A DNA stretch of 18,174 bases from an uncultured bacterium (lineage in GTDB: Bacteria; Acidobacteriota; Holophagae; Holophagales; Holophagaceae). The stretch covers positions 1 to 18,174 of the forward strand of contig CAXYVC010000048.1 of the NCBI GenBank assembly GCA_964292295.1. Direction: 5' to 3'. Shown here in pieces: positions 5,081-13,839 of the stretch (position 1 is the first letter of the stretch; each line of letters opens with the position of its first letter). A program made the translations under genes and the position numbers. Under the pieces are notes generated by a model. That model saw nothing but the letters and a program-made list of their open reading frames with translations, was not told where the DNA came from and ran no database searches.

Positions 5081-5623
5081 TTGGACAGCGCCGATGACAC
5101 GCAGCTGATGGCCCGCGTCCGCGTGGGCGACGGGGAGGCCCTGGCCCTGCTCTTCGAGCGCCATCAGGGGCCTCTGGTGGGCTTCCTGCACCGGATGACT
5201 GGTTCCGCCGGACTGGCGGAGGATCTGGCCCAGGAGAGCTTCCTGCGGGTGCTCCGCTATGCCCGCAGTTTCAAGCCGGAGGCGCCCTTCCGGCCCTGGC
5301 TGTACCGCATCGCCCGCAACGTCCTGGCGGACCACCGGAGTCCCCTTGACCTGCCGCTGGAGCCCCACGCCGCTTCGGTGCCCGCCGCGGGGCCCTGCCC
5401 CCATGCCGTGCTGGAAGCCACGGAGCGCCGGCAGCGCCTGGCCGAGGCTCTGGAGCGCCTGCCCGAGGACAAGCGGGAGCTGCTGCTGCTCTCCCGGAAC
5501 CTGGGCTACGAGGCCCTGGCGGAGAACTTCGGGTGCAGCGCGGGCGCCCTGAAGGTGCGGGTGCACCGGGCGCTCCAGGAGCTGCGGGCCCTTTTCTTTG
5601 AAGGCCAGGAGGTGCGGCCATGA
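5081..5623 (+). CDS. ECF (extracytoplasmic function) sigma-70 family RNA polymerase sigma factor
   Basis: Region 2 (LAEDLAQESFLRVLRYARSFKPEAPFRPWLYRIARNVLADH) and region 4 (LERLPEDKRELLLLSRNLGYEALAENFGCSAGALKVRVHRAL) signatures. TTG start at 5081 lies 11 nt after GAGGAG; an alternative ATG is at 5108. Stop TGA 5621-5623 overlaps the next ATG. Confidence 0.8.
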   Translation: MDSADDTQLMARVRVGDGEALALLFERHQGPLVGFLHRMTGSAGLAEDLAQESFLRVLRYARSFKPEAPFRPWLYRIARNVLADHRSPLDLPLEPHAASVPAAGPCPHAVLEATERRQRLAEALERLPEDKRELLLLSRNLGYEALAENFGCSAGALKVRVHRALQELRALFFEGQEVRP

Positions 5624-6327
5624 CGATGGAACCGGGGCCCTGCGAGGCCTTCCTCGAGGCGCTGGCGAGGGGCCAGGAACCGACCCCGGAGGCGCGGTCC
5701 CATGCGGAGGCCTGCCCCGCCTGCCGGGAGCTGCGCGACCTGTGGGAAGACCTGGGCGTCCTGGCCGACGCGGGCCCGGATTCTGGCCGCGTCGCGCGCT
5801 TCCGGGAACGCCTGGCGCGGGAGGGGCGGCTGCACCCCCCACGGCGCCTGCTGCGCCTCCTGCTGCCCCTGGCGGCGGCGCTCCTGCTGGTGGCCGGAGG
5901 CGCCTTCGCCGGCGGCTGGCTGCTGCGGGGCCCCGCGGGCCGGGATTCCGAGCTGGCCCTGCTGCGGCGGGGGGCAAGCGGCGCGCGGGTGCAGGCCATC
6001 GCCCTGCTGGGGGCCGGGCGGCAGGGTGGCCCTGACCTGGAGGCGGCGCTGCTGGAGCGGGTCCGGCGGGACGAGGCCACGGAGGTGCGCCTGGCGGCGG
6101 TGGAGGCGCTCTACCTCTGCGCGTCCGATCCCGGCCTTTCCGGCCGCCTGGAGTCGGTCCTGGCCGCCCAGGAACGTCCCGAGGTCCAGCTCGCCCTGGT
6201 GGACCTGATGGTGGCCCTGCGGGAGCGCCGGGCCGCGGAGGCCCTGCGCCGGGTGCTCGGCCGCGGCGGCCTGTCGCCCGAGGTGCGGGCGCGGGCGGAG
6301 CAGGGGCTGGCGGGCATTCCGCTGTAA
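5620..6327 (+). CDS. Anti-sigma factor: N-terminal zinc-finger (ZAS HxxxCxxC), single TM helix, C-terminal HEAT-repeat domain
   Basis: ATGA overlap with the sigma gene and a GGAGG SD 7 nt upstream. Motif SHAEACPACREL is the HxxxCxxC zinc anti-sigma signature. TM segment LLRLLLPLAAALLLVAGGAFAGGWLL. The C-terminus carries repeated E.VRLAAVEAL / RRAAEALRRVL HEAT/PBS-lyase-like repeats. Confidence 0.65.
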   Translation: MTMEPGPCEAFLEALARGQEPTPEARSHAEACPACRELRDLWEDLGVLADAGPDSGRVARFRERLAREGRLHPPRRLLRLLLPLAAALLLVAGGAFAGGWLLRGPAGRDSELALLRRGASGARVQAIALLGAGRQGGPDLEAALLERVRRDEATEVRLAAVEALYLCASDPGLSGRLESVLAAQERPEVQLALVDLMVALRERRAAEALRRVLGRGGLSPEVRARAEQGLAGIPL

Positions 6328-6387
6328 CGGTCCCGTCCGGAAGGGGTAGTCATGGATGCGGGGACATCCCGCATGGAGGGAAGTCCC

Positions 6388-7701
6388 ATGAACCGGAAGC
6401 TGAAGGTCGGTCTGGCGATCCTGGGCGGCGTGGCGGCCTTGCTGGTGGCGGCTCACCTCGTGGAGAACTTGCGGGGCAGGCACGCCTGGCGCAGCTGGAA
6501 GCGGGCCCGCCTGGCCGCCGGGGACCGCTTCGAACCGGCCGCCTTCGCCCCGCCCGCCCTGCCGGAGGCCGACAACTTCGCGGCCGCACCCCTGATCGCC
6601 GAGACCGTGCAGGGGCGGCGCCCCGGGCCCCAGGTCCCCTCCGCGCTCGGCGAACCCCGCCTGATGGGCAGCTGGCGCGAGGGACGAAGGTCCGACCTCG
6701 CGGCCCTGAAAGATACGCTGAAGGTGCAGGACCTGGACGCCTTCCTGGCGCCCTACGGGGTCGAGCTGGAGGCCCTGGCCGAGGCGGCTCGGCGCCCGGG
6801 CTGCCGCCTGCCCGTGGACTACGGCGCGCCCATGGCGGTTCCTCCCCAGTGGCTGGGCATGCGCGCCCGGGCGCGGCTCCTGGCCCTGCGGGCCCTCGTG
6901 CGCCTGGAGCAGGGGAAGTCGGAAGCCGCCCTGGAGGACGTGCTCACGGGCCTTCGCGTGGCTGGTCGCCTCCAGCGGGAGCCCCACCTCATCACCCAGC
7001 TCCTGCGCCTGGCCTGGGCGAACATCCTGTTGCAGCCCGTGTGGGAGGGGCTGGAGGCGCGGTGCTGGAGCGCCTCCCAGCTGGAGCGCCTCCAGGCGGC
7101 CCTGGAGAGGGTGGATCTCGTCGCCTCCTGGCGCCAGGCCGTCCTGTACGAAGGCTGCGGAAGCGTGTCCAGCTTCGAGGCGGTGGTCGAGAAGAACGCC
7201 ATCCTGCGGGGCTGGGCCTACCAGAACCTGGTGCGCATGGGCGGCTGGTGGTACCAGAACGCGGAGGTCATGGATTCGGTGCGGCACCGCTTCCGTCCCG
7301 AGGCCGAGGAACCCCTGAGGCGCATGCTCCTGGCCAGGAGGACGCCCTACACCTTCATGCTCGAATCCTTGCCCGCCATGTTGGGCCAGAACCAGCGCAT
7401 GGCCCGCACCCAGTCGGGGCTGGACCAGGCCCGCGTGGCCTGTGCCCTGGAGCGCTTCCGCCTGGCGAAGGGCTCCTATCCCGAGCGCCTGGAGGCGCTG
7501 GTACCGGGCTTCCTTCCCGAGGCGCCGGGCGACGTGATCGAGGGCCAGGCCCTTTGCTACACGCGCTTCCGTCCCGACGCCTTCCGGCTCTATTCCCCGG
7601 GGTGGAACCGCCAGGATGAGGGCGGGCGCTTGGTCCTTGAGGCGGGGGGCAGGAGCGATCCGGGCAGGGGCGACTGGCCCTGGACGGGGTCTCAGAGGTA
7701 G
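6388..7701 (+). CDS. Hypothetical signal-anchored (N-terminal TM) protein, likely exported domain; family not recognised
   Basis: MNRKLKVGLAILGGVAALLVAAHLV is a charged n-region followed by a hydrophobic helix. SD GGAGGG lies 8 nt upstream of ATG 6388. An alternative ATG at 6352 is also preceded by GGAAGGGG. It lies immediately downstream of the sigma/anti-sigma pair. Stop TAG 7699-7701 overlaps the 3' end of the convergent NlpC/P60 gene by 10 nt. Confidence 0.5.
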   Translation: MNRKLKVGLAILGGVAALLVAAHLVENLRGRHAWRSWKRARLAAGDRFEPAAFAPPALPEADNFAAAPLIAETVQGRRPGPQVPSALGEPRLMGSWREGRRSDLAALKDTLKVQDLDAFLAPYGVELEALAEAARRPGCRLPVDYGAPMAVPPQWLGMRARARLLALRALVRLEQGKSEAALEDVLTGLRVAGRLQREPHLITQLLRLAWANILLQPVWEGLEARCWSASQLERLQAALERVDLVASWRQAVLYEGCGSVSSFEAVVEKNAILRGWAYQNLVRMGGWWYQNAEVMDSVRHRFRPEAEEPLRRMLLARRTPYTFMLESLPAMLGQNQRMARTQSGLDQARVACALERFRLAKGSYPERLEALVPGFLPEAPGDVIEGQALCYTRFRPDAFRLYSPGWNRQDEGGRLVLEAGGRSDPGRGDWPWTGSQR

Positions 7702-8456
7702 CTGCGGGCGCCTAAGTACCGTTCCCGGAAGTAGGAGCTGTCCAGGGATTCCTCCCGGATGGTGCTGCCCTGGCGGGAGGCGTGCACGAAGCGGCCGCCT
7801 CCCGCGTAGAGGCCCACGTGGCTCACCTGGCCCTTGGCGCCGGTGGCGAAGAAGAGCAGGTCGCCCTTCTGGAGTCTGGCGCGCTCCACGGGGTGGCCCT
7901 GCTCCCACTGTTCCCGGGAGCTGCGGGGGATCCGGAGGCCGTCCAGGCGGTACACGGCCCAGACGAGGCCGCTGCAGTCGAAGCCGTCCCCGTTGGTGCC
8001 CCCCCACAGGTAGGGCACGCCCAGGAAGCTGCGGGCGCGCGCCACCAGGCGCTCCCGCAGCTCCGGGACCTTCCCGGGTTCGAGGGCGATGGGCTCGGGC
8101 GCCACGAGGTAGTAGACCTCCAGAACGCCTTCCCTCCGCAGGGCCTCGGCGCGGCGCCTGGCGGATTCCCGGTCCGGAAAGTCGCCGAAGCGCACCTTGT
8201 AGAGGCCGTCGGGCGCGGCGAAGTAGGTGGCGTCCAGGCCCAGATCCTGGAGGCGCGCGCTGAGGCGCGCGGCGTTCTCGACCCGGGCGAAGGCGCCGGC
8301 CTGGATCGTGGTGCCCAGGGCGCGGGCGGGGCGTTCCGAGGCCTGCGCGGGGACGGGGCGCCGCGGCGGGGCGGCGGGAGCGGGTCGCGGAGGCCGGCAG
8401 GCGGGGAGGGAGAGCAGCAGGCCCGCGACGAGGGCCAGGGCAACGCGCGGCCTCAC
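7692..8456 (-). CDS. NlpC/P60-family cell-wall peptidase lipoprotein with N-terminal SPOR domain
   Basis: GTG start at 8456 preceded by GAGGAGGG. Signal peptide plus a possible lipobox MRPRVALALVAGLLLSLPAC. SPOR-like segment IQAGAFARVENAARLSARLQ...YKVRFGDF. NlpC/P60 catalytic triad context GFDCSGLVWAVY (Cys), VSHVGLYAGGG (His), RFVHASRQG (His). The start overlaps the kinase stop (GTGA). The long track ORF 7692..9779 is the same frame read through without a stop; its upstream part is Arg/Pro-rich nonsense. Confidence 0.75.
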   Translation of the reverse strand: MRPRVALALVAGLLLSLPACRPPRPAPAAPPRRPVPAQASERPARALGTTIQAGAFARVENAARLSARLQDLGLDATYFAAPDGLYKVRFGDFPDRESARRRAEALRREGVLEVYYLVAPEPIALEPGKVPELRERLVARARSFLGVPYLWGGTNGDGFDCSGLVWAVYRLDGLRIPRSSREQWEQGHPVERARLQKGDLLFFATGAKGQVSHVGLYAGGGRFVHASRQGSTIREESLDSSYFRERYLGARSYL

Positions 8457-9751
8457 GCGCCCTCCTCGGGCAGGGGCTGGGGCAGCTCGAAGGTGAACTC
8501 GGCCCACTCCCCTGGGCGGGAACGGGCATCCATGCGGCCCCCGTGGAGGAGCACGATGCGCCAGGAGGTGTAGAGGCCCACGCCCGTGCCCTTGATCCGG
8601 GCCAGCTCGGGGCTCTGCAGGCGGCTGAACTTGCGGAAGAGGCGGCCGCGCTGCTCGGGGGGGAAGCCGGGGCCCTCGTTCCAGACCGCCACGCGGACGA
8701 GGTTCGGCTCGTGCCCATAGTGGAGGCGGATCAGCCCGCCCTCGCGGCCGTACTTCACGGCGTTGCCCAGCAGGTTCACCGTCACGATCTTCAGCAGGGC
8801 GGGATCGCAGCGGAGCGCTTCCGGCCGCTCCGGGTAGTGGCGCTCCACGCGCATGCCCCGCTCGGCGATCTGGGGCTGCACCAGCTCCAGGGCGGGCTCG
8901 AGCACCTCCTCCACGAGCATGGACTCCGTGGCCGCGAGGCGCAGCCTTCCGCCCTCCATGCGGGCGAGGTCGAGGTACTCGCGCACCAGGTCCAGCAGGT
9001 AGCTGCCCTTCTGGATGAGGCGCTCCAGCTTCTGCACGTGGCGCGGGTCCAGCTCCCCCAGGTAGCCGCCCGTGAGCACCCGCGCGTCGGTGATCATGCT
9101 GGCGATGGGGTTCTTCAGCTCGTGGCTCACGAAGGCGAGCATCTCGTTGTAGGCCTGGTTGGCGGCAGTGAGCTGCTCGATGCGCCAGACCTTCTCGACC
9201 GCCTGGCTCAGGCGCTCGGCCAGGGCGCGCCACAGGCGGACGTGGTAGGGCGTGTAGACCCGTTCGTCCCGCGAGCTGAGGAAGAGCAGGCCATAGGGGC
9301 GCTGCTCCACCATGAGGGGGCAGGCCATGCTGGAGCGCACGCCCTCCCGCACCAGCAGGCGGGTGGAGGCGCTGCGGGGGTGCTCCGCCTCGTAGCGCGC
9401 CAGGTCGTAGATGATGCGGCTGCAGCCGCTGGCGAGCACCGTCTGCAGGGAGCTGCCCGCGAGGTCCTCCGCGTAGCCGTCCTTCAGCAGCACTTCCGGG
9501 TACAGGGCCCGGGTGCGCCGGGAGACCACGCGCCGCCCGTTCTCCTCCACGAAGGCCAGGCCGATGCGGTCGCAGGGGTAGAGCGCCCGCAGGTTGCCGA
9601 AGAGCCAGTCCAGCAGCTCGTCCAGGGACTCCTTGGCGCTGACCTTGCGGTTCACCGTGTCGAGGATCTCCTGCTCCTCCGCCGGGAAGACCTCTTCCTC
9701 GGCGCCTTCGAAGGTGCTCAGGAAATGGAGGTTGGCGTGGAGGTCGACCAT
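8453..9751 (-). CDS. Soluble sensor histidine kinase with N-terminal GAF domain (GAF-HisKA-HATPase_c), no TM segments
   Basis: 432 aa from ATG 9751. H-box FVSHELKNPIASM, N-box NLLGNAVKYG, G1 VWNEGPGF, G2 GTGVGLY. The N-terminal 170 aa is GAF-like (…LYPCDRIGLAFVEENGRR…MACPLMVEQRPYGLLFLSS…). The SD is weak. The 8453..11548 track ORF is this frame extended upstream without a stop. Confidence 0.8.
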   Translation of the reverse strand: MVDLHANLHFLSTFEGAEEEVFPAEEQEILDTVNRKVSAKESLDELLDWLFGNLRALYPCDRIGLAFVEENGRRVVSRRTRALYPEVLLKDGYAEDLAGSSLQTVLASGCSRIIYDLARYEAEHPRSASTRLLVREGVRSSMACPLMVEQRPYGLLFLSSRDERVYTPYHVRLWRALAERLSQAVEKVWRIEQLTAANQAYNEMLAFVSHELKNPIASMITDARVLTGGYLGELDPRHVQKLERLIQKGSYLLDLVREYLDLARMEGGRLRLAATESMLVEEVLEPALELVQPQIAERGMRVERHYPERPEALRCDPALLKIVTVNLLGNAVKYGREGGLIRLHYGHEPNLVRVAVWNEGPGFPPEQRGRLFRKFSRLQSPELARIKGTGVGLYTSWRIVLLHGGRMDARSRPGEWAEFTFELPQPLPEEGA

Positions 9752-9816: not shown

Positions 9817-11742
9817 CTACTCGATGTATTTCCCCCGGGGCGTGTAGTGCGTGTGCAGCAGGGCGTGGCTCTTCGCGCCGCAGGGGCCCTCGGTCAGGAA
9901 GTCCTCGTACAGCTTCAGCAGGGCGGGATTCTCGTGGGACTTCCGCACCGCGTACGCACGGTCCTCCTCGTAGATGGCGCGGGCGCGCGCCTCCCGGATG
10001 GCGGGGCTGGTGGGGATCGGCTGCCCGCCGCCGCCGATGCAGCCGCCGGGGCAGCCCATGAACTCGATGAAGTGGCACTTGGAGAGCTCGCCACCGCGTC
10101 GGATGTCCTCCATCACCTTCTTGGCGTTGGCGGTGCCGTGGGCCACCGCCACCTTCAGGGTGTGCCCCTTCAGGAAGCGCCAGTGGGGGAAGAGGTGCGC
10201 CAGCATGGGGGGCACCTCTCCCACCTCCTGGATGGGGAGCTCCAGGTAGCGCACGCCATCGAATCCGCGCAGGGGCTTGATTTCCGCGTGCTCGAAGAGG
10301 TTCTCCACCTTCACGCCGCACACCAGCTCCACGACCGTGCGCAGGGCCGCCTCCATCACGCCGCCGGTGGCGCCGAAGATCACGCCCGACCCCGTGGCCG
10401 TTCCGAAGGGGGCGTCGAAGTCGCTCTTCGGAAGCATCGGGAGCTCCAGGCCGGCCTCGCTGATCATCTTCGCCAGTTCCCGGGTGGTGAGGCCGTAGTC
10501 CACGTCCTTGAAGCCGCTGGCGGCCATCTCGGAGCGGTTGCACTCGAACTTCTTGGCCGAGCAGGGCATGAGGGCCACCGTCACGATGTCCTTCGGGTCG
10601 ATCCCGTGCTTCTCGGCGTAGTACGTCTTGATCACCGCGCCGAACATCTGCTGGGGGCTCTTGGCGGTGCTCAGGTTCGGGATGTATTCGGGGTAGAAGT
10701 GCTCCAGGTATTTCACCCACCCCGGCGAGCAGGAGGTGAACTGGGGGAAGGCGGCGCCGGGCTCCCGCAGCAGCAGCGCCTTCTTGAGGCGCAGCAGCAG
10801 TTCGGTGCCCTCCTCCAGGATCGTGAGGTCCGCCGAGAAGTTGGTGTCGAAGACCCGGTCGAAGCCGCACATGCGCAGCGCCGTGTTCAGCTCGAAGGTG
10901 AGGGCTCGGCCCGGCGCGAGGCCGAAGCATTCGCCGATGGCGGCCCGCGGGCTGGGGGCGGTCTGGATCACCACGTGCTTGGCGGGGTCGTCGATGGCGG
11001 CCCACACCTCGTCCGTGGGGTCGTTGGCGCGCAGGGCGCCCGTGGGGCAGCGGTTGATGCACTGCCCGCAGTTGATGCACACCACGCTGCCCAGGGGCTT
11101 CTCCAGGAAGGTGCCGATGTGGCTCCTGGCGCCCCGCTCGATCACCTCGATGGTGCCGACCTCCTGGAGGTCGATGCAGGTGCGCACGCAGCGGCGGCAG
11201 AGGATGCACTTGTTGTTGTCCCGCACCACGCTGGTGCTGGATGCGTCGATCTCGTGGACGGGCTGGCTCTGGTGGCCGAAGCGGAAGAAGTCGACGCCGT
11301 ATTCCCTGGCGAGGGACTGGAGCTCGCAGGTGCCGTTGCGCCCGCAGGCGTAGCAGTCGCCCACGTGCTCGGAGAGGAGCAGGTCCAGGATGTGGCGCCG
11401 CGCCCGGCGCACCCGTTCGGTGTGCGTGCGCACCTTGATGGGGGCGGTGACGGGGTAGGCGCAGGCGGCCTGGAGGGTGCGCTGGCCCTCGATCTCCACG
11501 GAGCAGATGCGGCAGACGCCCGCCACGCAAAGGTCCGGGTGGTGGCATAGGGTGGGGATCCGCACGCCCACGCGGGCGGCGGCCTCCAGGATGGTGGTGC
11601 CCAAGGGCACCTTCACCTCCGTCCCGTTGATGGAGATGCCCACCTGGCCGCCGATGGCCTGGGGGCGGTCGGGCGGCGGCACCACCTGGGCCTGCTGGCT
11701 GGCGGGGGCGCGGCGGGATGCAGTCGTGGTCTGGTCGGACAT
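9817..11742 (-). CDS. hydA: [FeFe]-hydrogenase catalytic subunit HydA (M3-type: 2Fe-2S, His-ligated 4Fe-4S, 2x 4Fe-4S ferredoxin-like, H-cluster domain)
   Basis: 641 aa from ATG 11742, with GGAG 6 nt upstream. 2Fe-2S motif CHHPDLCVAGVCRIC. His-ligated cluster motif HVGDCYACGRNGTC. Ferredoxin-like motifs CILCRRCVRTC and CINCGQCINRCP. H-cluster motifs L1 FTSCSPGW (variant), L2 MPCSAKKFE, L3 EFMGCPGGCIGGGGQP. Confidence 0.9.
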   Translation of the reverse strand: MSDQTTTASRRAPASQQAQVVPPPDRPQAIGGQVGISINGTEVKVPLGTTILEAAARVGVRIPTLCHHPDLCVAGVCRICSVEIEGQRTLQAACAYPVTAPIKVRTHTERVRRARRHILDLLLSEHVGDCYACGRNGTCELQSLAREYGVDFFRFGHQSQPVHEIDASSTSVVRDNNKCILCRRCVRTCIDLQEVGTIEVIERGARSHIGTFLEKPLGSVVCINCGQCINRCPTGALRANDPTDEVWAAIDDPAKHVVIQTAPSPRAAIGECFGLAPGRALTFELNTALRMCGFDRVFDTNFSADLTILEEGTELLLRLKKALLLREPGAAFPQFTSCSPGWVKYLEHFYPEYIPNLSTAKSPQQMFGAVIKTYYAEKHGIDPKDIVTVALMPCSAKKFECNRSEMAASGFKDVDYGLTTRELAKMISEAGLELPMLPKSDFDAPFGTATGSGVIFGATGGVMEAALRTVVELVCGVKVENLFEHAEIKPLRGFDGVRYLELPIQEVGEVPPMLAHLFPHWRFLKGHTLKVAVAHGTANAKKVMEDIRRGGELSKCHFIEFMGCPGGCIGGGGQPIPTSPAIREARARAIYEEDRAYAVRKSHENPALLKLYEDFLTEGPCGAKSHALLHTHYTPRGKYIE

Positions 11743-11762
11743 GGTCGACTCCGATGCGCGCG

Positions 11763-12938
11763 TCAGGCGTGGGTGAACTGGCGGCCCATGATCTCGTCGC
11801 GGAAGTGCTTCACGACGGAGAGGAAGGCGTTGGGGCTGCTCTGGCCGAGCCCGCACTTGGAGGCGATCTGCATGGTCTCCCCCAGGGCGCACAGCTCGTT
11901 CAGGTGGGCCATGGAACAGGTGCCCTCCTGGAGGCGCCGCACGCCCTCCAGGAGCTTCGGGTTGCCGCAGCGGCAGGGGGTGCACTGGCCGCAGCTCTCG
12001 TCCACGAAGAAGGCGAGGAAGTTCTCCAGCACCCGCAGCATGTCGCGCTGGGGCCCGAAGACGATCACGCTGCCGCCGGTGGGGATGTCCTCGAAGGCCA
12101 GGGTGCGCCCGAATTCCGCGGCGGGAACGCACTGCCCCGAGGCGCCGCCGATCTGGACGGCCTTGGCCCCCGTGCCGCCCACCTGCGCGAGCAGTTCGTG
12201 GACGGTGATGCCCAGGGGGAGCTCGTAGACGCCGGGGCGCTCGCAGTCGCCGGAGACGCTGAAGAGCTTCGGGCCCGTGCTCTTCTCGGTGCCCTTGGAG
12301 CGGAACCAGGCCGCGCCCTTGGCCAGGATGCAGGCGGCCGAGGCGAGGGTCTCCACGTTGTTCACCACCGTGGGGTGCCCCAGGAAGCCGGTGTTCACGG
12401 GGAAGGGGGGCCGGTTGCGCGGTTCGCCCCGGAAGCCCTCCAGGCACTCGATGAGGGCGGTCTCCTCGCCGCAGATGTAGGCGCCGGCGCCCGTGAAGAC
12501 CCGGATGTCGAAGTCCAGGTCGCTGCCCAGGATCTCGCGCCCCAGCAGCTTCTGCTCCCGGCGGCGCGCCAGCACTTCCAGGAGGTGGGGCTTCAGGTAG
12601 GTGTACTCGCCGCGCAGGAAGAGGATGCCCTCCTTGGCGCCGATGGCCCTTCCCGCGAGGGTCATGCCCTCGAAGACGAGGTCCGCGTGCTCCTGGAGGA
12701 TCACCCGGTCCTTGAAGGTGCCGGGCTCACCCTCGTCGGCGTTGCAGACCACGAACTTGCGGCTGGACTTGGCGGCCGCCGCGAAGTTCCACTTCACGCC
12801 CGTGGGGAAGCCCGCGCCGCCGCGGCCCTTGAGGCCGGAGGCGCCGATCTCGGCGATGATGTCGGGGCGGGGCAGGGACAGGGCCCTGCGCAGGCCCTCT
12901 TCCGGAACCATGGAGGCAAAGGTCGGGACGGGGCTCAT
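11763..12938 (-). CDS. hydB: NADH-binding flavoprotein subunit HydB (NuoF/51-kDa-like), compact form
   Basis: 391 aa from ATG 12938, with AGGAGG 10 nt upstream. NuoF motifs GASGLKGRGGAGFPTGVKW (FMN/NADH site) and ESCGQCTPCRCG...KCGLGQ (N3 4Fe-4S). There are no additional CxxCxxCxxxCP ferredoxin motifs and no N-terminal thioredoxin-like 2Fe-2S domain. ATGA overlap with hydC. Confidence 0.85.
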   Translation of the reverse strand: MSPVPTFASMVPEEGLRRALSLPRPDIIAEIGASGLKGRGGAGFPTGVKWNFAAAAKSSRKFVVCNADEGEPGTFKDRVILQEHADLVFEGMTLAGRAIGAKEGILFLRGEYTYLKPHLLEVLARRREQKLLGREILGSDLDFDIRVFTGAGAYICGEETALIECLEGFRGEPRNRPPFPVNTGFLGHPTVVNNVETLASAACILAKGAAWFRSKGTEKSTGPKLFSVSGDCERPGVYELPLGITVHELLAQVGGTGAKAVQIGGASGQCVPAAEFGRTLAFEDIPTGGSVIVFGPQRDMLRVLENFLAFFVDESCGQCTPCRCGNPKLLEGVRRLQEGTCSMAHLNELCALGETMQIASKCGLGQSSPNAFLSVVKHFRDEIMGRQFTHA

Positions 12939-13456
12939 GCGAGGTGGACCTCCTTCCTCTCGGTGGCGTGGACGCCGAAGACCTTGCGGCAGTCCTCGAG
13001 GATCGCGTGCACCTGTTCCGGCGTGACGCGGGTGAAGACCCGCTCGTTCACCAGGAGCGCCGGCCCCTGGTCGCACATGCCCATGCAGTTCGCCCACTCC
13101 AGGGTGAACTTGCCGTCCTTCGTGGTCTCGCCGAAGGCGATGCCCAGGTCGTTCTCCAGCTGGCGGGCCCCGCGGTCCTTCCCCTGCATGTCGCAGGAGA
13201 TGGTGCGGCAGAGGCGGATCACGAAGCGGCCCTGGGCGCGCTCCCCCAGGAATGCATAGAAGGAGGCGACGCTGTGCACCTCCACGGGGTGGATGCCCAG
13301 CTCGTCGGCCACCACCTGGAGGGCGTAGGCGTCGAGCCGGTGGTACGTGCGCTTCACCTCCTGGAGGATGGTCAGCAGGGCGCTGCGGTCGCAGCCGAAG
13401 CGCTCGGCCAGCGCCTTGACCTCCCGAACCAGGCGTTCCCGTTCGGTCATCAGCAT
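12935..13456 (-). CDS. hydC: Thioredoxin-like [2Fe-2S] subunit HydC (NuoE/24-kDa-like)
   Basis: 173 aa from ATG 13456, with GGGAGG 7 nt upstream. NuoE Cys pattern RLCRTISC...WANCMGMCDQGPAL (Cx4C...Cx3C). Stop TGA overlaps the hydB ATG. Confidence 0.85.
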   Translation of the reverse strand: MLMTERERLVREVKALAERFGCDRSALLTILQEVKRTYHRLDAYALQVVADELGIHPVEVHSVASFYAFLGERAQGRFVIRLCRTISCDMQGKDRGARQLENDLGIAFGETTKDGKFTLEWANCMGMCDQGPALLVNERVFTRVTPEQVHAILEDCRKVFGVHATERKEVHLA

Positions 13457-13458
13457 GG

Positions 13459-13839
13459 CTAGGCCTCCCGGCGCGCCAGCAGGCGCGCCACCTTCGCCAC
13501 GAGCACGTCGGGCTCCACGGGCTTGGGCACGAAATCGTCCACGGGCACCATCTCGTCGTCCGGGCCGAAGGCGAGGCCTGAGGCGGTGGCGACGCTGGTG
13601 AGCATGAGGATCGGCAGTTTCAGGCCCTTCCGGCGCAGCTCCTGGGCCATGGTGAAGCCGTCGTCCGGCTGCTCCATCATCACGTCCAGGATCAGCAGGT
13701 CCGGCTGGAAGCGCTCCACCATCCGGAGGCCTTCCTGGCGGCTTCCCGCGGAGGCCACCTCGTGGCCCTCCTTCTGGAGGAAGAGCTGGCTGGCTTCCAC
13801 GATGTCGGGGTCGTCGTCGACGATGAGGACCTTGGCCAT
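13459..13839 (-). CDS. Stand-alone response-regulator receiver domain protein (CheY-like, no output domain)
   Basis: 126 aa from ATG 13839, with GGAG 6 nt upstream. MAKVLIVDDDPDIVEA (acid pocket), DLLILDVMMEQPDDGF (phospho-acceptor Asp), LMLTS (Thr), FVPKPV (Lys). The stop lies 2 nt before the hydC ATG. The track ORF extends it to 14109, but that N-terminus is low-complexity. Confidence 0.8.
   Translation of the reverse strand: MAKVLIVDDDPDIVEASQLFLQKEGHEVASAGSRQEGLRMVERFQPDLLILDVMMEQPDDGFTMAQELRRKGLKLPILMLTSVATASGLAFGPDDEMVPVDDFVPKPVEPDVLVAKVARLLARREA

Follow-up and report, generated by a model that had tools for sequence, protein, structure and literature searches.

A serine at the fourth cubane-ligand position of the H-cluster in a HydABC-type [FeFe] hydrogenase from an uncultured Holophagaceae bacterium

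The hydA gene and its H-cluster motifs

An 18,174-nucleotide stretch of contig CAXYVC010000048.1 (assembly GCA_964292295.1) from an uncultured member of the Holophagaceae, referred to here in its full length as the window, carries a gene for the catalytic subunit of an [FeFe] hydrogenase in which the first of the three H-cluster motifs (L1) reads TSCSPGW, with serine in place of the second cysteine of the consensus TSCCPxW. The gene, hydA, occupies positions 9817..11742 of the minus strand and encodes a protein of 641 amino acids (aa) which was assigned to the M3 type by Pfam, NCBIfam and Protein Data Bank (PDB) matches. It lies in frame within a longer open reading frame (ORF; 9817..12447, minus strand), and analysis of G+C content at third codon positions (GC3) together with the lengths of homologues placed the real start at the methionine of MSDQTTT. 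The G+C content of the window is 67%–78%.

The Pfam domains of HydA comprise Fer2_4, NADH-G_4Fe-4S_3 (a His-ligated 4Fe-4S domain), two [4Fe-4S] motifs, Fe_hyd_lg_C (PF02906, E = 3.5e-82) and the small-subunit-like domain Fe_hyd_SSU (PF02256, E = 1.1e-22), which is the M3 layout, and no PAS or other sensory or signalling domain was found in HydA in the Pfam scan. The protein scored 461.7 bits against the group A model TIGR02512 (cut-off 405.95) and 784.8 bits against NCBIfam NF040763, "NADH-dependent [FeFe] hydrogenase, group A6" (cut-off 765).

A preliminary description of this DNA had drawn attention to the codons ttc acc tcc tgc tcg ccg ggg tgg, and translation of the minus strand confirmed that they read F T S C S P G W in the frame of hydA. 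The span which it gave for the motif, 10726..10746, does include the serine codon but translates to PQFTSCS and omits P-G-W; with this small offset corrected TSCSPGW runs from 10737 to 10717, that is 10717..10737 on the minus strand, and corresponds to HydA residues 336-342. Within it Ser339 is encoded by TCG (10726..10728, minus strand) and the preceding Cys338 by TGC (10729..10731, minus strand). Motif L2, MPCSAKKFE (10543..10569, minus strand), contains Met392, Cys394 and Lys397, and motif L3, EFMGCPGGCIGG (10030..10065, minus strand), contains Met562, Cys564 and Cys568. Both translated as first described, with their cysteines kept and with MGC for the usual MAC in L3, where Gly563 (EFMGC; 10054..10056, minus strand) takes the place of the usual alanine, Ala498 of the Clostridium pasteurianum enzyme CpI. 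L2 and L3 match the group A consensus sequences MPCxxKxxE and ExMxCxxGCxxG, including the three cysteine ligands; L1 does not match the strict consensus TSCCPxW and matches exactly the form found in the characterised HydA1 of Acetobacterium woodii. Judged by its domains, scores, motifs and proton pathway (see below), HydA is predicted to be the catalytic subunit of a group A (prototypical) [FeFe] hydrogenase.

Alignment of Ser339 with a cubane ligand of solved enzymes

HydA was compared with all PDB chains using phmmer. The best match was A. woodii HydA1 (7q4v_A, E = 1.2e-172, aligned over the full length), and further matches were Thermoanaerobacter kivui HydA (8a6t_A, 3.6e-156) and CpI (~1e-120); with a PDB match at 1e-172 beside the Fe_hyd_lg_C match the hydrogenase motif is not a chance match. 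The alignments to the A. woodii, T. kivui and C. pasteurianum proteins were free of gaps from some 10 residues ahead of L1 until far past it, the blocks ending in FPQFTSCS at residue 339 of the query, LPMITSCS at 301 of A. woodii, FPMFTSCC at 299 of T. kivui and FPMFTSCC at 300 of CpI, so that TSCSPGW lies ungapped against TSCCPGW of CpI and TSCSPGW of A. woodii HydA1. Ser339 is paired with CpI Cys300, T. kivui Cys299 and A. woodii Ser301, and Cys338 with CpI Cys299, indicating that Ser339 stands at the cubane-ligand position and Cys338 at the proton-relay position. A shift of the alignment register, with both canonical cysteines present after all, was ruled out by the absence of gaps through L1.

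The same phmmer alignments paired Met392, Cys394, Lys397, Met562, Cys564 and Cys568 with CpI Met353, Cys355, Lys358, Met497, Cys499 and Cys503, Ala262-Pro263-Ser264 with CpI Ala230-Pro231-Ser232, and Glu311, Glu314, Arg318 and Ser358 with CpI Glu279, Glu282, Arg286 and Ser319. With Cys338 the last four residues make complete in HydA the set (Cys338, Glu311, Ser358, Glu314, Arg318) whose CpI counterparts, Cys299, Glu279, Ser319, Glu282 and Arg286, form the proton-transfer pathway, with Cys299 as the relay next to the azadithiolate bridge. The CpI equivalents of Met392, Lys397, Met562 and Ala262-Pro263-Ser264 are also important at the H-cluster. HydA shares its fold, its accessory-cluster domains, the L2 and L3 cysteines and, residue by residue, the proton pathway with CpI and T. 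kivui HydA, whereas these two have cysteine at the fourth ligand position (CpI Cys300, T. kivui Cys299) and alanine before the first L3 cysteine, where HydA has serine and glycine. The preliminary description had held that the residue replaced is the ligand of the [4Fe-4S]H subcluster and that the relay cysteine is retained, and the gap-free pairing bears this out, the ligand role being as given by Katsyv et al. (2023).

Compared with A. woodii HydA1 and CpI, the H-domain is also longer by an insertion of about 19 residues (~10170..10290, minus strand; HydA residues ~485-525, within PIQEVGEVPPMLAHLFPHWRFLKGH), and at the N-terminus there is a low-complexity extension of 33 residues, MSDQTTTASRRAP. 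In the comparison with A. woodii HydA1, from which the N-terminal extension is likewise a difference, the insertion falls near residues 500-525. Judged by protein length (640-643 aa), both features are apparently common to the close homologues.

Conservation of the serine

Six near-identical proteins from separate NCBI, ENA and JGI records, reported at 100% identity and not all of one sequence, were all scored as TSCSPGW, and one of them is encoded on a 146 kb JGI metagenome contig (L001), which has both the TCG codon at the serine position and the gene order of the window. TSCSPGW was present in 119 of the 120 closest homologues (74-100% identity). A scan of genomes, restricted to one genome per species and using search patterns that left out L1, returned 80 loci at 50-82% identity which span the Holophagae, Phycisphaerae, Planctomycetota, Myxococcota, Hydrogenedentota, Thermoleophilia, Ignavibacteria, Bacteroidota, Clostridia and others; when the JGI locus is counted with them (50-100% identity) the pair Cys-Ser is encoded at 79/81. 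The recurrence in orthologues that had been set as a check on the variant is thus borne out at both depths.

Across these loci all six serine codons are in use (TCG 39, TCA 16, AGC 16, TCT 7, TCC 3, AGT 1). Synonymous turnover over both serine codon families indicates selection for serine itself, and on this codon evidence we conclude that purifying selection acts on Ser339. Codons of the TCN and AGY families can be interconverted only by changing two nucleotides together or by passing through cysteine or threonine, which would fit a position that toggles between cysteine and serine.

These data also bear on whether TCG could be a sequencing or assembly error, the true codon being TGC or TGT and the protein a canonical TSCCPGW enzyme. 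Nothing specific speaks for an error, beyond the fact that read support is not visible in a single window. The six near-identical proteins come from separate records, L001 has the same codon, serine is written in six ways at 79/81 loci, and, as had been pointed out at the outset, two nucleotide substitutions separate TCG from a cysteine codon. With orthologues, independent contigs and codon diversity all against it, we regard the error reading as excluded and its residual chance as negligible.

Distribution of the Cys-Ser and Cys-Cys forms

A search of 1.84 billion 50%-identity cluster representatives was carried out, and the 125 best matches with a full H-domain were aligned. The L1 pair was Cys-Ser in 17 and Cys-Cys in 89 of them, in line with the published figure, by which ~20% of the putative hydrogenases analysed have serine at this position (Kertess et al. 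2017, PMC5855289). In a neighbor-joining (NJ) tree of 126 H-domains (the 125 representatives and the query), a quick tree from BLOSUM distances without support values, the serine and cysteine forms were interleaved. The representative nearest to the query (P0125, 62% identical) has TSCCPSW with EFMAC, and so does a locus 65% identical to the query in an Acidobacteriota metagenome-assembled genome (MAG; L038, JARRNO010000045.1, 5329-5349), which has a receiver-hydC-hydB-hydA context like that of the window. These two canonical sequences indicate that cysteine and serine forms exchange within one operon type, and together with the interleaved tree they rule out TSCSP as the mark of a single clade. 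Nor is the serine tied to a bifurcation class, since the class with a short HydB and the clostridial class with a long HydB (Phe/GGPSG, see below) both have TSCSPGW.

Serine at the ligand position was found among the representatives without a neighbouring cysteine as well (SSSSPAW, SSASPAW and TSFSPAW). At one genome locus, in an Ignavibacteriaceae MAG (L020, JARRKF010000123.1, 1967-1987; 70% identical), L1 reads TSSSPGW, encoded with AGC and TCA, so that both L1 cysteines including the relay are replaced by serine; this could be a real relay-less variant or a MAG error. Two further MAGs, from the Syntrophorhabdales and the Deltaproteobacteria (L067, L074), each have two TSCSPGW-encoding hydrogenase reading frames and a NuoF-like ORF of ~1000 aa, possibly a HydB-HydA fusion, whose C-terminal extension measures ~480 aa.

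Association of the serine with an L3 glycine

In the representative alignment the column most strongly associated with Ser339 was that of CpI Ala498, occupied by Gly563 in HydA. Glycine was present there in 6/17 serine representatives compared with 0/89 cysteine representatives (Fisher p = 7e-6, not corrected for phylogeny). Metagenomes were then scanned for a DNA pattern encoding MGCPGGC, which gave 81 contigs with a readable L1. All 49 contigs with a group-A-type L2 (MPCxAKKFE; 42-79% identical to the query H-domain) encoded Cys-Ser, while all 32 contigs of a remote family (23-29% identity, L2 GPCAxKKLE, L3 EGMGCPGGC) encoded Cys-Cys in the form TSCCP. The remote family rules out a universal rule that MGC occurs only with serine; the rule holds only for group-A-type sequences. 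In the query's own clade serine is accompanied by either glycine or alanine at the Ala498 position. The pattern among group-A-type sequences is therefore that glycine occurs only with serine and not the reverse, which is suggestive of a compensating second-sphere change.

The hydCBA operon and its partner genes

Upstream of hydA on the minus strand lie hydB (11763..12938), which encodes a NuoF-like flavin mononucleotide (FMN)/NADH subunit of 391 aa with only the Complex1_51K, SLBB and NADH_4Fe-4S domains and was also called in L001, and hydC (12935..13456), which encodes a NuoE-like, thioredoxin-like [2Fe-2S] subunit of 173 aa. The first gene of the cluster, also on the minus strand, encodes a stand-alone response-regulator receiver of 126 aa (13459..13839; PF00072), and 65 nt downstream of hydA is the gene for a sensor histidine kinase of 432 aa with GAF, HisKA and HATPase domains by Pfam (8453..9751, minus strand), which has the identical position in L001. 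The gene order is thus receiver-hydC-hydB-hydA-GAF kinase, all on the minus strand. The closest named homologues of HydA, in Holophaga foetida, Mesoterricola and Geothrix, are 80-82% identical to it, and the homologues of these genera are named at NCBI as NF040763 group A6 hydrogenases; the hydrogenase of the window is an ordinary member of this already curated family. By themselves these homologues and the G+C content point to a Holophagae-like member of the Acidobacteriota as the probable source.

Gene context was counted at genome loci of at least 60% identity with enough flanking sequence. A receiver gene stood directly upstream of hydC in 44/52 related loci from many phyla, and a histidine-kinase gene was present on the hydA strand no more than 1.8 kb downstream of hydA in 28/50; at 14 of these 28 kinase-bearing loci the kinase was at least 40% identical to the GAF kinase of the window. 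These counts point to a conserved receiver-hydCBA-kinase module, a linkage for which no description was found in the literature searched.

The conserved flanking kinase and receiver are what would be expected if HydA were a sensory or catalytically disabled homologue (a group C/D HydS or a Nar1-type protein), with the two-component proteins as its signalling output. However, HydA keeps the relay Cys338, the full Glu-Ser-Glu-Arg pathway, Met392 and Met562, and to our knowledge group C/D sensory enzymes lack the relay cysteine; replacement of both methionines and a fused PAS or other signalling domain would likewise be expected of them. The absence of a PAS or sensory domain, a domain layout and HydB and HydC partners of the metabolic HydABC type, scores above the cut-offs of NF040763 and TIGR02512, and the identical motif in the highly active A. 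woodii enzyme also speak against a sensory protein. The sensory or altered enzyme that the preliminary description had allowed for is therefore, with every other H-cluster ligand and catalytic residue present, very improbable, and we prefer to regard HydA as a metabolic enzyme.

The electron partner of such an enzyme was considered from HydB. In the non-bifurcating class the beta subunit has no additional Fe-S domains, a tyrosine rather than phenylalanine near the FMN, and no GGPSG motif (Losey et al. 2020). HydB has the motifs GAGAYICGE, with tyrosine at the FMN site, and GGASG for GGPSG, and its C-terminal tail past the NuoF core is no longer than 21 aa throughout the clade. Clostridial relatives (~50% HydA identity; loci L063-L081 were compared) provided an internal control, having in contrast a HydB of ~597 aa with GAGAFVCGE (Phe) and GGPSG. 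From the short HydB, the tyrosine at the FMN site and the lack of GGPSG, the HydABC complex encoded here is probably non-bifurcating, NADH-linked and ferredoxin-independent. It resembles the Hyd1ABC type of Syntrophomonas wolfei and NF040763 group A6 in having three subunits, of which beta is short and NuoF-like and gamma is NuoE-like, and it shares with the S. wolfei/Syntrophus aciditrophicus type the tyrosine at the FMN site of HydB and the lack of GGPSG, whereas receiver and kinase genes are not described there.

Elsewhere in the window three co-directional plus-strand genes (5081..7701) encode an extracytoplasmic function (ECF)-type sigma factor, with regions 2 and 4 of sigma-70 according to the annotation of the matching JGI contig, and proteins of 235 aa and 449 aa without Pfam matches. 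These are possibly a sigma/anti-sigma module unrelated to the hydrogenase.

Discussion

Serine at the second L1 cysteine is a known and frequent natural variant which has already been described in an active, structurally solved enzyme, and it is not a new type of active site. At the [4Fe-4S] cluster A1 of the H-cluster, one of the cysteine ligands (Cys299 in T. kivui) was reported to be "replaced by" Ser301Aw in the A. woodii complex, whose cryo-electron microscopy structure at 3.4 Å was modelled with the serine as a cluster ligand; the complex had an activity of 4.1 U/mg when assayed for bifurcation, and for the enzyme normal Fourier-transform infrared (FTIR) signatures were recorded, HoxH and Hhyd being among its catalytic states (Katsyv et al. 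2023, PMC10021017). Hydrogenases of Melainabacteria were also reported with TSCSPGW (Di Rienzi et al. 2013, PMC3787301). The literature searched on natural serine ligation gave nothing beyond Di Rienzi et al. (2013), Kertess et al. (2017) and Katsyv et al. (2023). The novelty that the preliminary description had attached to the altered L1 was accordingly overestimated, since the variant is present in ~20% of sequences (Kertess et al. 2017) and in the characterised A. woodii enzyme.

The explanation which we favour, with good though not complete confidence, is that hydA encodes the catalytic subunit of a heterotrimeric NADH-linked HydABC with a natural serine-variant H-cluster that is expected to be competent in the manner of A. 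woodii HydA1. That the serine is genuine and sits at the ligand position of a working cluster, one of the readings first offered, is supported by its conservation, by the gap-free alignment and by the A. woodii enzyme with the identical TSCSPGW. HydA shares with A. woodii HydA1 (HydABC; PDB 7Q4V, 7Q4W, 8A5E) this motif, the M3 layout and the NuoF-like and NuoE-like partners. The two differ in L3, which has MAC in A. woodii and MGC here, and in HydB, which in A. woodii has extra Fe-S domains in a complex that bifurcates to ferredoxin, whereas the HydB encoded here is a NuoF core of 391 aa that has Tyr and GGASG; the organism and operon are also different, with receiver and kinase genes at the locus described here.

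In the proposed mechanism the [4Fe-4S]H cubane would be held by Cys394, Cys564, Cys568 and the O-gamma of Ser339, the Ser-Fe bond being predicted by analogy, and Cys568 would bridge the cubane to the di-iron site. Protons would travel by way of Arg318, Glu314, Ser358, Glu311 and Cys338, the last member of the relay, whose role would be unchanged. The route of the electrons would lead from the accessory clusters to the HydB FMN and then to NAD+, with no part played by ferredoxin.

Several observations weigh against this explanation. The A. woodii map at 3.4 Å is too coarse to prove an Fe-O bond. When the four cubane ligands of C. reinhardtii HydA1 (CrHydA1) were mutated, the engineered C115S variant showed neither stable binding of the cubane nor insertion of the [2Fe] subcluster, and it had no activity (Kertess et al. 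2017, PMC5855289). That residue is numbered on the expressed CrHydA1, and we equated it with the L1 ligand through the neighbouring Cys114 of that paper and the natural serine at this position. Some scaffolds therefore do not tolerate serine, and the activity of HydA is something that we infer. No maturase genes hydE, hydF or hydG were found in the window. A further criterion for non-bifurcating beta subunits, Thr/Ser and Lys/Ser/Ala at positions 232 and 234 of Thermotoga maritima HydB (Losey et al. 2020), did not separate the two HydB classes when these positions were mapped by a guess made without the T. maritima sequence. With regard to CrHydA1, the exchange is at the matching ligand position, but the engineered variant lost most of its cubane and was dead whereas the natural A. 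woodii TSCSP enzyme is active, and natural serine enzymes presumably carry a compensating context.

The main residual doubt concerns the identity of the fourth ligand. In a structural register shift Cys338 would bind the cubane, giving four thiolates, Ser339 would be a bystander and protons would reach the azadithiolate bridge by another way. Cys114 was suggested as an alternative ligand in the C115A variant of CrHydA1 (Kertess et al. 2017, PMC5855289), and at its resolution the A. woodii map cannot rigorously tell the two cases apart. On the other side, serine-ligand sequences exist which have no neighbouring cysteine to take over (the SSSSPAW, SSASPAW and TSFSPAW representatives, and TSSSPGW at the Ignavibacteriaceae locus), and the Pro-Gly-Trp that follows in L1 is unchanged, which argues against a rearranged loop. 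Judged by variants at C299 of CpI and C169 of CrHydA1, the HoxH and Hhyd states depend on the relay cysteine. In the A. woodii enzyme these states are normal, and the authors of the structure modelled Ser301 as the ligand (Katsyv et al. 2023). The serine sequences without a neighbouring cysteine and the normal A. woodii states thus favour serine ligation; we would argue for serine rather than Cys338 as the fourth cubane ligand and consider ligation by Cys338 unlikely.

The L3 glycine and the gene context allow two further proposals, which we put forward tentatively and think rather doubtful. In the first, serine and the L3 glycine would be a co-evolved pair in group-A-type enzymes. The glycine would then be a second-sphere adjustment that only the shorter Fe-O ligand makes possible, with a potential influence on the redox potential of [4Fe-4S]H or on the catalytic bias of NADH-linked enzymes, and its absence might be the reason for the failure of the bare Cys-to-Ser exchange in CrHydA1. 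In the second, the widely conserved receiver-hydCBA-kinase cluster would mean that this NADH hydrogenase is controlled by, or reports to, a dedicated phosphorelay.

For annotation, TSCCPxW should be read as a consensus and not as a rule, and serine at the second cysteine should not be taken as a sign of an error or of loss of function. That the exchange destroys CrHydA1 while a large share of natural enzymes carry serine makes the Ser/Gly563 association a candidate lead. The enzyme described here adds an example from the Holophagae, where, as in many phyla of soil and sediment, a short-HydB, probably non-bifurcating NADH-linked hydrogenase occurs under putative two-component control.

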